The notes: a model not told the origin generated them from the letters alone. A stretch of 64,000 nucleotides of DNA from a virus (IMGVR_UViG_3300028533_000217:1-64000), one strand, 5' to 3'. Positions 10,510 through 43,076 are shown, counted from the first letter of the stretch. A program made the numbers and translations.

Positions 10510-10682
10510 GATACAATGTTAGCTATAGAGCCTGCCCTCTATCAGCATATAGTATAGAGCCTGCCCTCTATCACTATACATCATATTGTATCAAATATAT
10601 GTAATGTTAGCTATAGAGCCTGCCCTCTATCAGCATATAGTATAGAGCCTGCCCTCTATCACTATACATCATATTACATATA
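10510..10682 (-). ncRNA. Two-unit structured RNA repeat (88-bp period) carrying four 21-bp hairpin repeats
   Basis: TATAGAGCCTGCCCTCTATCA x4 (10524, 10553, 10612, 10641); closing stems differ but both pair (GATACAAT/ATTGTATC; TATATGTAAT/ATTACATATA). Confidence 0.7.
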
Positions 10683-18612: not shown

Positions 18613-18655
18613 TTTGTCTTTTATGATAAATTTAAGTTAATGATTTGAAATTATA

Positions 18656-18911
18656 ATGTGAAGTGTACTGTACAGATGTGTAAGCATCCAAATAGTTCGA
18701 AACGAGGGGTTCAACGTAAACGTTGATTATATGATAATTGTGAATTATCAGCCGCAAGGAATAGGCTATTTGTCAAGCATTTATGTGAAGTGTACTGTAC
18801 AGATGTGTAAGCATCCAAATAGTTCGAAACGAGGGGTTCAACGTAAACGTTGATTATATGATAATTGTGAATTATCAGCCGCAAGGAATAGGCTATTTGT
18901 CAAGCATTTAT
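18656..18911 (+). ncRNA. Tandem pair of identical 127-nt structured RNA units (family A/B, locus A)
   Basis: Exact direct repeat 18656..18782 / 18783..18909; GC-richer than flanks; multiple hairpins; homologous to 42005..42282; enclosed by inverted repeats 18621..18645 / 18919..18943. Confidence 0.8.
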
Positions 18912-18962
18912 ACGTTCCAATCATTGATTTAAATTTATTATAAAAAATAAAGGAGTGATTTT

Positions 18963-19616
18963 ATGTATTTAGAAATATGTTCAAATGTTCATGAGGAGTA
19001 TGTAGGTAAAGGAGATTCAATGGTTCATGTTAATGTTAGATTTTGGGTTGATGTTAACAATGTATATTGGTATAGTTATGTAGATATATGTAAATTGGTG
19101 TCATTAAACGAAAACGTCGCAAATAGATGGTATAGATATGAAATGATGGATAATGAAAAATGTACATGTATGGATTCAAATAATTATGATCAATACAACG
19201 TTCAACAACCAAAACCTGTAGATTTTATAACGAGCGAAACTGCAAAATTAGTAGTCCAAAGACATGCCGATTATATATCAGAAAGAGATAATAACATAAT
19301 AAAATCTTTAAATAATCTAGAATGTGTAGGAAATGCTTTTGAAGTATTCCAAGACGCTGAAGAAATAAAACAGCATAAACAAAAGATATATGAAAGTATA
19401 GAAAATAATGATTATGAATCATTCTTCTTCCATTGTCATAAAGTTTCACAAACTAAAACATGTAGAGATACATTATCTAAGAGAGGTGTAATTGATAAAG
19501 ATATGGAGGAAGCTCTTGATACGATACGCGAATATTTATACAACGAACCAGAAACTAAATGTGTGTATGGTAAAAATGATTTTAATGACATAATATGGGA
19601 GTATGATGAGTTTTAA
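18963..19616 (+). CDS. Bro-N domain protein, paralog of 42340..43020
   Basis: VRFWVD.NNVYWYSYVDICKLV..DNEK..FITSE matches the Bro-N pattern VR..D.EPWF..D.C..DDDK..FINE. Confidence 0.7.
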   Translation: MYLEICSNVHEEYVGKGDSMVHVNVRFWVDVNNVYWYSYVDICKLVSLNENVANRWYRYEMMDNEKCTCMDSNNYDQYNVQQPKPVDFITSETAKLVVQRHADYISERDNNIIKSLNNLECVGNAFEVFQDAEEIKQHKQKIYESIENNDYESFFFHCHKVSQTKTCRDTLSKRGVIDKDMEEALDTIREYLYNEPETKCVYGKNDFNDIIWEYDEF

Positions 19617-23948: not shown

Positions 23949-24019
23949 CAGGATTATTTCCTGTTATTTTTTATATGTTCCATAACATTATTATAAATAA
24001 ATTATAGGAGGTTATTAAT

Positions 24020-40052: not shown

Positions 40053-40106
40053 AAGCTTTTGAAACTGATTGAGTGATGTAAAAATAATATATATATATAT
40101 AAATAA

Positions 40107-41719: not shown

Positions 41720-41941
41720 ATGGGTAAGAGTAAAGATATAATGAAAATAAAAGGAACTGTAATAAAATGTCTGCCTGGAGCTAAATTTATAGTTCAGGCA
41801 GATGAAGTTGATGTAACAGCAACATGTGTATTATCAGGTAAACTAAGACAAAATAAAATAATGTTAGTTGAAAATGATAAAGTAGAATTTGAAATATCAA
41901 TTTACGATTTAACAACCGGAAGAATAGTTTGGAGATACTAA
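41720..41941 (+). CDS. infA: Translation initiation factor IF-1 homolog
   Basis: KDIMKIKGTVIKCLPGAKF.V..LSGKLRQNKI..DKV.FEIS.YDLTTGRIVWRY. Confidence 0.9.
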   Translation: MGKSKDIMKIKGTVIKCLPGAKFIVQADEVDVTATCVLSGKLRQNKIMLVENDKVEFEISIYDLTTGRIVWRY

Positions 41942-42004
41942 TTTGATAAGAGGAAAAATTCCTCTTATCAAATTTTATATTTTACATAACATAATTATAA
42001 ATAT

Positions 42005-42282
42005 ACTGTGAAGTCGATATGAATATGTAAGTCAAAAGCTTACATACAATGGCGCGAAACAAGTGGTGCTGATGTAAACATCAGATGGATGGCAGGTGTG
42101 ACCTGACAGCCATGCGGAATAGGTCATTGTCAAACAGTATTTACACTGTGAAGTTCATATCATATGTAAGTCAAAAGCTTACATACAATGGCGCGAAACA
42201 AGTGGTGCTGATGTAAACATCAGATGGATGGCAGGTGTGACCTGACAGCCATGCGGAATAGGTCATTGTCAAACAGTATTTA
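42005..42282 (+). ncRNA. Tandem pair of near-identical ~139-nt structured RNA units (family A/B, locus B)
   Basis: Units at 42005 and 42145 differ only just after GAAGT; AACA-N6-TA at 41988; homologous and covarying with 18656..18911. Confidence 0.8.
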
Positions 42283-42297
42283 ATTTACTTTTACATA

Positions 42298-42322
42298 GAG
42301 ATAACCTTTAATAGGTTATCTC
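42298..42322 (+). terminator. Hairpin between the RNA repeats and the Bro-N gene (possible attenuator)
   Basis: GAGATAACCT-ttaat-AGGTTATCTC; weak U tract. Confidence 0.5.
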
Positions 42323-42339
42323 AAATTATTTTAAAAGGA

Positions 42340-43020
42340 GTGATTTATATGTATATAACAATAGAATCTGAAGTTCATAAAGATTGGGGTTATGGATTAG
42401 AATTTAGATATTACGTTGACATGGATAATACATGGTGGTATTGTTATGAAGATATATGTGATTATATAGAATTAAATCAACAAGTTGCTGATAAAATATA
42501 TAGACACAAATTACAAGAAGATGATAAAAGAACCGTATATGACAGAAACCATAACAATAATCGTGGGGAACAAGAAACGATAGTTCTATATTTTATATCT
42601 TCCAATGCTGTAAGATATATGGTGAAACGTAATAATGAACGTAACAGTAGATTAATAAAGGTTATGAACAATTTGGAATTCGTTAGTGGAGCTCATGAAA
42701 TATTTAACGATAACGAAGAGTTAAAAGAAAGAATAAATGTTTTAGGTAAATCTATAGAAAAATATGATTATGAAGAAATATTCTATCAGGCAAAACAATT
42801 AGTTGAATCTGAATCGGGTAAAAATATATTAGACAAGATGGGAGTTATAGATAAAGATAAAGAATCTTTAATAGAACAGATAAAACATGAGATATACGAT
42901 TATGATGAAAATATAGAAGAAGTACAATTAACCATGAGAAACCTAAATGAAGAAAAGAAAGTTAAATTTAAAAAATCAGAAACAGAAATTCCTAAGTGGT
43001 TAAGTGAAGTTGTGAAATAA
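42340..43020 (+). CDS. Bro-N domain protein, paralog of 18963..19616
   Basis: FRYYVDMDNTWWYCYEDICDYIEL..RHKLQEDDK..GEQE..YFISS; shared C-terminal NNLE.V..A.E.F.D.EE.K..YE..F..GVIDKD.E; likely ATG 42349. Confidence 0.75.
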   Translation: MIYMYITIESEVHKDWGYGLEFRYYVDMDNTWWYCYEDICDYIELNQQVADKIYRHKLQEDDKRTVYDRNHNNNRGEQETIVLYFISSNAVRYMVKRNNERNSRLIKVMNNLEFVSGAHEIFNDNEELKERINVLGKSIEKYDYEEIFYQAKQLVESESGKNILDKMGVIDKDKESLIEQIKHEIYDYDENIEEVQLTMRNLNEEKKVKFKKSETEIPKWLSEVVK

Positions 43021-43076
43021 TTCTAAACGGTGTTATATAACACCGTTTATTTTTTCTAAAGGAGGTAAAACATGAG

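Follow-up and report, generated by a model that had tools for sequence, protein, structure and literature searches.

Type III toxin-antitoxin loci (ToxIN, CptIN and TenpIN) are among the described systems closest to the locus analysed here: near-identical tandem RNA repeats lie directly 5' of a protein gene on the same strand, and RNA and protein are inherited as a pair. In the immI region of phages P1 and P7, the c4 antisense RNA (RF01695) precedes icd and ant; there, a small structured RNA heads an operon with an antirepressor-type product and is released by processing of the common transcript. Tandem riboswitch aptamers, such as those for glycine, place two similar folded domains in a 5' region, and the orphan phage RNAs GOLLD and ROOL combine phage carriage with intricate folds, GNRA-type loops and a function that is not established. 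Finally, a helix between the two flanks encloses a structured RNA in the precursor stalks of rRNA and tRNA, to which the RNase III sites in the early RNA of phage T7 can be compared. On the protein side, Bro-N has been described as a superfamily of DNA-binding domains in DNA viruses, frequently linked to domains of the homing-endonuclease type (PMC8096241).

The locus described here, locus B, lies in a window of 64,000 nucleotides, with which an IMG/VR virus record of 98 kb (estimated completeness 47%) begins. With type III loci it shares the hairpin between repeats and gene, but its units are three to four times longer and form multi-helix junctions, arrays of its kind hold one to three modules (some with unlike distal domains), a long stalk replaces the terminator at most loci, the protein has a Bro-N fold instead of belonging to an endoribonuclease family (ToxN/AbiQ, CptN or TenpN), and the carriers are giant phages rather than hosts or plasmids. 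In contrast to c4, the RNA has no Rfam match, is larger and repeated, and is no more complementary to the ORF start region than shuffled sequences are; a c4-like antisense role was considered and rejected on this comparison. The possible terminator of locus B is a further likeness to tandem aptamers, from which the array differs by its exact copies, its exchangeable distal domains, a non-metabolic downstream gene and the lack of a family match. GOLLD and ROOL are unrelated to this RNA in sequence and structure models, as it has no Rfam hit, and are much larger than one of its modules; it is moreover repeated and tied to one protein family. The precursor and T7 stalks resemble those of locus A and the related loci in the 25-30-bp flank helix around a structured RNA, in G.U pairs and small defects and in the downstream message; the enclosed RNA here is, however, a new modular family, cleavage is only predicted, and locus B has no stalk.

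The features of locus B and of a second locus in the same window, locus A, are collected in Table 1. Tandem Repeats Finder reported a repeat with a period of 139, 2.0 copies and 97% matches at 42005-42282, in agreement with the pair of 139-nt RNA units proposed in the preliminary description. Upon direct alignment, B1 and B2 mismatched only in four columns right after GAAGT (CGATATGAA vs TCATAT-CA) and were identical elsewhere, and locus A carries another sequence in this slot (GTACTGTACA), both as had been stated. The corresponding repeat of locus A (18656-18911) has a period of 127, 2.0 copies and 100% matches. An unrelated exact tandem repeat with a period of 88 nt (1.8 copies, 29-nt hairpin-like subrepeats) is present at 10515-10675.

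The hairpin that had been placed between the RNA pair and the ORF was also detected and is terminator-like; its stem has 10 bp with 4 G-C pairs, and its tail is AAATTATTTT. Shuffled sequences give 0.2 such sites per region. No counterpart was found at locus A or in the related loci examined. The layout likened to type III toxin-antitoxin or attenuated loci is therefore present at locus B but only there, as locus A and nine relatives have a stalk and no hairpin. The proposed AACA-N6-TA promoter amounts to a motif. It is present, and the 19-nt version of it, CATAACAT(A/T)ATTATAAATA, has one further intergenic copy at 23981-23999 that differs by one base and stands just 5' of a ribosome-binding site and gene; however, the loose pattern AACA-N6-TAAATA is not enriched (44 found vs 40.6 expected). 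Other intergenic TATAAATA boxes were seen 9-85 nt 5' of ORF starts (at 40098, 40624, 46667, 47222 and 37834), which suggests a T4-late-like promoter class in the source phage.

Table 1. Coordinates of the features of loci A and B in the 64-kb window.
Feature	Position	Strand	Remarks
Locus A stalk, 5' arm	18619-18647	+	RNAduplex, flank vs flank, -36.5 kcal/mol; shuffles -11.9 +/- 2.7
Locus A RNA units, two exact 127-nt units	18653-18911	+	R1 128.6 and 125.7 bits
Locus A stalk, 3' arm	18917-18945	+	Ends just before ribosome-binding site
ORF A (P0002, 217 aa)	18963-19616	+	Paralog of ORF B
IF-1 homolog ORF, 73 aa	41720-41941	+	Pfam eIF-1a, E 3.5e-14; immediately upstream of locus B
Terminator-like hairpin closing IF-1-like gene	41940-41974	+	16 pairs, then T-rich tail
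Promoter-like element CATAACATAATTATAAATA with TATAAATA box	41985-42003	+	Putative; 1-6 nt 5' of first unit
RNA unit B1	42003-42141	+	Covariance model R1 141.5 bits, E 2.5e-31
B1 P0	42005-42009 with 42134-42138	+	
B1 joiner GAAG	42010-42013	+	
B1 P1 slot	42014-42023	+	
B1 P2	42024-42046	+	
B1 P3	42047-42053 with 42123-42129	+	
B1 P4 (UAAA loop)	42069-42084	+	
B1 P5 (UGUGA loop)	42093-42105	+	
B1 joiner UCAA	42130-42133	+	
RNA unit B2	42143-42280	+	R1 135.9 bits; equals B1 except P1 slot 42154-42162
Hairpin between array and ORF B	42298-42322	+	Weak intrinsic-terminator-like site; specific to locus B
ORF B ribosome-binding site AAAGGAGTGATT	42334-42345	+	
ORF B (P0001, 223 aa)	42349-43020	+	ATG behind AAAGGAG; alternative ORF call starts at GTG 42340
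Terminator-like hairpin 3' of ORF B	43024-43049	+	11 pairs, tail TTTTTTCT

Each unit folds into a four-way junction of helices P0 to P3, with the conserved, purine-rich joiners GAAG and UCAA(A); P1 and P2, like P2 and P3, abut directly without a linker. P0 joins the 5 nt that precede GAAG to the 5 nt that follow UCAA(A), the P2 hairpin is capped by a GNRA loop or by a loop of 7-8 nt, and P3 is a long-range stem that holds a conserved internal loop (CGAAA opposite AUAGG) followed by a distal domain. In its commonest form, which is that of locus B, the distal domain is a three-way junction with two hairpins whose loops are invariant (G-UAAA-C and UGUGA) and whose stems covary. Single-sequence folds of 16 units mostly gave the same junction architecture, and the units of loci A and B share ordered blocks separated by stems that differ by compensation. 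Because G.U pairs are frequent in the unit helices, the fold is assigned to the + strand.

In a model-based alignment of 18 distinct sequences (A6), 96.2% of the cells pair, as compared with 74.8% in shuffles, and both sides have changed in 27 of 33 pairs. The covariation score was 0.512 vs 0.18 for shuffles, none of which reached it in 500 trials, and slid partners scored at most 0.10. Since A6 was fitted to the covariance model, an alignment-free strand check was added. The P3 strands of a unit form 5.8 contiguous pairs with each other vs 2.4 with strands taken from other loci, and P0 strands pair at -4.0 kcal/mol with their own partner vs -0.5 kcal/mol with a foreign one. RNAalifold applied to a plain MAFFT alignment found P0, P2, P4 and P5 unaided, with 15 compensated pairs. 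With the covariance model R1, canonical units reach 126-146 bits and variant units 32-66 bits. Together, these results strongly support the RNA fold and uphold the earlier statement that the repeat units encode a structured RNA; the function proposed for it below is inferred.

The fold is also modular. All stems covary among homologs, the strand between P4 and P5 differs freely, and the distal P3 domain is swapped wholesale, even within one array (units 1-2 vs unit 3 of L028; unit 1 vs unit 2 of L033), with further replacements in L038, L040, L043 and L163. The joiners show a few exceptions: L040 is without both, the sequence is UAAAA in L030, and AUAA occurs in the last units of L033 and L038. 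Searches against Rfam 15 gave no match at the gathering score in the 64-kb window, nothing relevant at E up to 10 on 41940-42360 and nothing at E up to 1 in eight related loci, and the RNA family was not found described in our literature searches. A tRNA-like nature was dropped, as ARAGORN found no tRNA, and a likeness to hammerhead or hairpin ribozymes that had been noticed by eye (GUC, GAAG, GAAAC) was discarded, the core motifs and topology not fitting and the Rfam models giving no match. This previously uncatalogued family is thus a well-supported addition to the catalogue of structured RNAs, and its multi-helix junctions, GNRA-type loops and invariant joiners are features usual in ribozymes, riboswitches and the RNAs of ribonucleoproteins.

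The protein encoded behind the array of locus B, P0001, is 35% identical to P0002 of locus A (E 1e-39). Pfam Bro-N (PF02498) matched P0001 at 20.9 bits (E 5.6e-4), below the cut-off of 25.6, and gave no match to P0002. An exhaustive HMMER search yielded a small family of 37 representatives, nearly all of 208-239 aa (alignment A2), on which an AlphaFold model of P0001 with a pLDDT of 91 was built. Residues 1-101 of the model matched Bro-N/antirepressor models in BFVD (E 1e-4 to 1e-3), and Bro-N clusters of the ESM Atlas align with the N-terminus over 89-99 residues at an rmsd of 2.3-3.3. According to this model, the N-terminal ~100 residues of P0001 have a Bro-N fold, in agreement with the preliminary description, which had recognised a Bro-N paralog and regarded locus B as the second locus of one RNA-plus-Bro-N system. 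The rest of the modelled protein consists of a helical middle and a C-terminal beta-hairpin-plus-helix tail; PDB fold searches with the C-terminal part returned nothing more specific than general helical matches (Z at most 6.3). In PADLOC the protein matched neither ToxN nor AbiQ nor any other defence or toxin model, PHROGs was equally uninformative, and Pfam, too, gave no match to a toxin family. Another protein, which is not of the Bro-N type, shares the C-terminal tail (..YKKHRK..STCP.WLKDVIK) with most members of the family (E 0.002). Its ORF (L028:1851-2378, 176 aa; G001:C1:92891-93022) lies directly 5' of the RNA array in some phages, and the shared tail may be a targeting or interaction module.

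RNA and protein family are linked one to one. For each of the 14 family proteins with readable DNA, the gene is directly preceded, in the same orientation, by the RNA or, where the contig breaks inside the repeat, by the 3' end of the RNA. Many family-gene contigs end 90-250 nt 5' of the ORF. The source record contains only four units, those of loci A and B, and two family genes. A second giant-phage record (202.8 kb, 81% complete) likewise carries a pair of two-unit arrays with a family gene directly behind each, and its 25-bp stalk is perfect. In both records, the count is exactly two for arrays and for full-length family genes, and each array goes with one gene. Furthermore, the RNA subtype follows the protein clade: the RNA of locus B is nearest to that of L033, and the L033 protein, P0011, is in turn nearest to P0001 among its distinct relatives. 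Units measure 121-145 nt, and arrays comprise from one module (L030, L035 and L043) to three and sometimes mix modules. These module numbers are uncertain, since short-read assemblies collapse or break in the repeat, as illustrated by L024, L025 and L026, which represent one lineage in three samples and show two units, an N run inside the array, or one unit.

One locus departs from this linkage. The 19-mer TGAAGTGTATATACAGATG had no real match in bacterial and archaeal genomes (one genome per species) and a single real match in JGI metagenomes, L163 (ERZ808026 NODE-14304, minus strand 397-537). This metagenome contig has 1.3x coverage, may be chimeric and carries one variant module beside bacterial-looking genes, with an intact stalk followed by a 21-codon ORF and no family gene. 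Other searches were less productive. The pattern GTAAAC..AGCC-N4-GGAATAGG gave 21 matches in viral contigs, all of them chance matches in coding DNA, and AAGTGTA-N2-6-TACAGATG was too loose, with at least 117 chance matches. No match to the locus was found in deposited phage genomes by blastn. Viral contigs searched with P0001 or alignment A3 gave nothing; the same contigs searched with alignment A4 gave L032. Just 3' of the cassette, L028, L030 and L031 encode a protein with an ATLF domain (PF07737) and the anaerobic ribonucleotide reductase NrdD, which fits giant phages that infect anaerobes of the gut.

A helix of 25-30 bp, formed by the two flanks, surrounds the array at locus A and at nine related loci. 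Nine of these stalks have energies of -28 to -41 kcal/mol and the tenth (G001) -43.5 kcal/mol, as compared with about -12 +/- 3 when the partners are shuffled. From locus to locus the arms change in sequence but remain complementary. The stalk of locus A contains 7 G.U pairs and is more stable as + strand RNA; all stalks together contain 26, and the + strand RNA is the more stable one in 9 of 10 loci. At locus B, the flanks pair at -12.7 kcal/mol, which equals the shuffles, and at locus A we looked for a terminator-like hairpin between array and ORF and found none. The helix of locus A and its relatives has the anatomy of an RNase III leader-trailer stalk, and cleavage at this helix is predicted. 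In L033 (1440-1470), L043 (295-320) and L039 (55-80), part of the 3' stalk arm also belongs to a local palindromic hairpin (CTTGATTATTAATCAAG or similar); the trailer of this subgroup could therefore alternate between the two structures. The ribosome-binding site of A, L024 and L030 comes immediately behind the 3' arm, and their 5' arm is preceded by a terminator; RNA and ORF should therefore share a transcript with a start further upstream. The promoter-like element and hairpin of locus B and the stalk of locus A would thus be two routes to a defined RNA, and this speaks for a discrete RNA as the product.

These observations lead us to propose that locus B is a copy of a two-part cassette conserved in a group of uncultured giant phages, its first part being a new structured RNA in an array of modules (two at locus B) and its second a protein of about 220 aa with a nucleic-acid-binding Bro-N fold at the N-terminus. 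The RNA would be made as a discrete non-coding product of the + strand. At locus B its transcription probably begins at a dedicated TATAAATA-type promoter, and the hairpin in front of the ORF would terminate or attenuate it; at locus A and its relatives it would be cut from a longer transcript at a stalk of the kind that RNase III cleaves. Most likely the RNA then acts with the protein encoded downstream, as a bound partner that would titrate, regulate or equip it, and a shared transcription unit would set the ratio of RNA to protein. We hold tentatively, at somewhat under an even chance, that a discrete processed RNA works with, or regulates, the Bro-N protein encoded behind it. Several points argue against this reading. 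Bro-N proteins are known as DNA binders and not as RNA binders, L163 has the RNA without a family gene behind it, and the copy numbers rest on assemblies that collapse or break in the repeat. The transcript shared at A, L024 and L030 fits a purely cis-acting leader equally well.

A bolder form of the proposal, in which the cassette represents a new class of phage ribonucleoprotein, with a processed, modular RNA as the obligate partner from which a Bro-N protein gains regulation or target choice, or in which the RNA core is a new self-processing ribozyme, appears doubtful but deserves attention. Bro-N proteins are encoded by some of the commonest genes of DNA viruses and few have a known role; to our knowledge, none has a dedicated RNA. 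A complex RNA fold tied one to one to a Bro-N subfamily of giant gut phages, present as a pair of cassettes within genomes, could reveal a new RNA-protein mechanism in phage biology, and if either of these readings is true the mechanism would have no described counterpart for this very common family. With two RNAs, two proteins and natural variants in one phage, the system is small and tractable.

The second-ranked explanation is that the RNA is purely a cis-acting 5' leader, either an autoregulatory protein-binding site or a riboswitch-like element, that sets expression of the Bro-N gene. The hairpin at 42298-42322 would then be an attenuator at locus B, and at loci of the A type the leader would work through the stalk next to the ribosome-binding site. 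We consider the leader unlikely overall, yet a serious contender. The constant position of the RNA, directly upstream and on the same strand, speaks for it, as do loci A, L024 and L030, where a separate promoter would not fit, the unusual conservation of the ribosome-binding region GGAGTGATT across loci, the terminator-like hairpin between RNA and ORF at locus B and a resemblance, noted by eye, of AAUAGGUCAU in the unit to the 3' arm of that hairpin. However, an array of one to three modules whose distal domains can be exchanged would be unusual for a leader, a stalk of 25-30 bp around the RNA alone suggests excision, the hairpin is not conserved beyond locus B, and the regulated gene is not metabolic and no Rfam riboswitch matches.

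Kinship with type III toxin-antitoxin systems, which the preliminary description had raised, would make the repeat RNA the neutraliser of a toxic protein, with the hairpin setting the ratio of RNA to toxin. The order of promoter, repeats, hairpin and ORF at locus B, the near-identity of repeats within a locus and the strict pairing of RNA and protein are as such a system would have them. Membership nevertheless fails, because neither the toxin family nor the unit anatomy fits: the protein has a Bro-N fold and no ToxN, AbiQ or defence match in PADLOC, where a ToxN-type endoribonuclease would be expected, and the units are elaborately folded and 121-145 nt long, not ~36-45 nt. In addition, three loci have a single module, most are without a terminator, and the cassette resides in giant-phage genomes, one pattern scan of bacterial genomes having found no copy. 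A toxin-antitoxin-like pair is thus improbable.

Quite improbable, too, is a new self-cleaving ribozyme that would cut multimeric transcripts into monomers near GUC/AAA at the unit boundary. The head-to-tail units, with conserved GAAG and (G)UCAAA strands beside the tail-head helix, would suit such an activity, and the GNRA-type loops and conserved internal loop suggest a compact tertiary fold; yet no known ribozyme family matched even at E up to 10, the joiners are absent or changed in L040, L030 and the last units of L033 and L038, and the motif is kept in single-module loci, where there is no neighbouring unit. Tandem repeats and flanking inverted repeats beside a gene with a DNA-binding fold, together with a P1 that is palindromic in many units, could also point to a DNA-level element (iterons, Bro-N operators, an origin or a small inverted-repeat mobile element). 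This is very improbable: the long-range helices conserve pairing through two-sided changes rather than sequence, G.U pairs make the structure strand-specific, and the GNRA-type loops are conserved where the stems vary.

The segment right after GAAGT had been described as an apparently unpaired slot that might be a guide or specificity element or else an unconstrained linker. In relatives, this segment is the small P1 hairpin, with UGUA-loop-UACA or a covarying form such as UGG-UAUA-UCA, and its loop (2-4 nt) varies in length and sequence. The P1 of locus B is AU-rich and degenerate, with the form of a quasi-palindrome; a hairpin of 3 bp is possible in B1, and B2 barely pairs unless it borrows from P2. 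Variation is not restricted to the slot among homologs either, as P0 and P2-P5 change by compensation and the whole distal P3 domain, the site of the largest variation, is replaced in several units; by the reasoning of the preliminary description itself, this spread counts against a hypervariable guide. That the segment pairs with phage or host transcripts, the use preferred at first, is barely credible: the sole B1/B2 difference falls in it and it also differs between loci A and B, but it is 9-10 nt long, either folds into a hairpin or descends from one, with a stem that relatives have kept, varies far less than the distal P3 domain, and lies in units whose complementarity to the ORF start region, taken whole, is no greater than that of shuffles. 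The other suggestion made at the time, an unconstrained element, fits better. Clustered changes in quasi-palindromes can come from one template-switch event. The best explanation of the B1/B2 difference is a local change in a small, loosely constrained P1 hairpin, plausibly produced by a single event of this kind in the quasi-palindrome.
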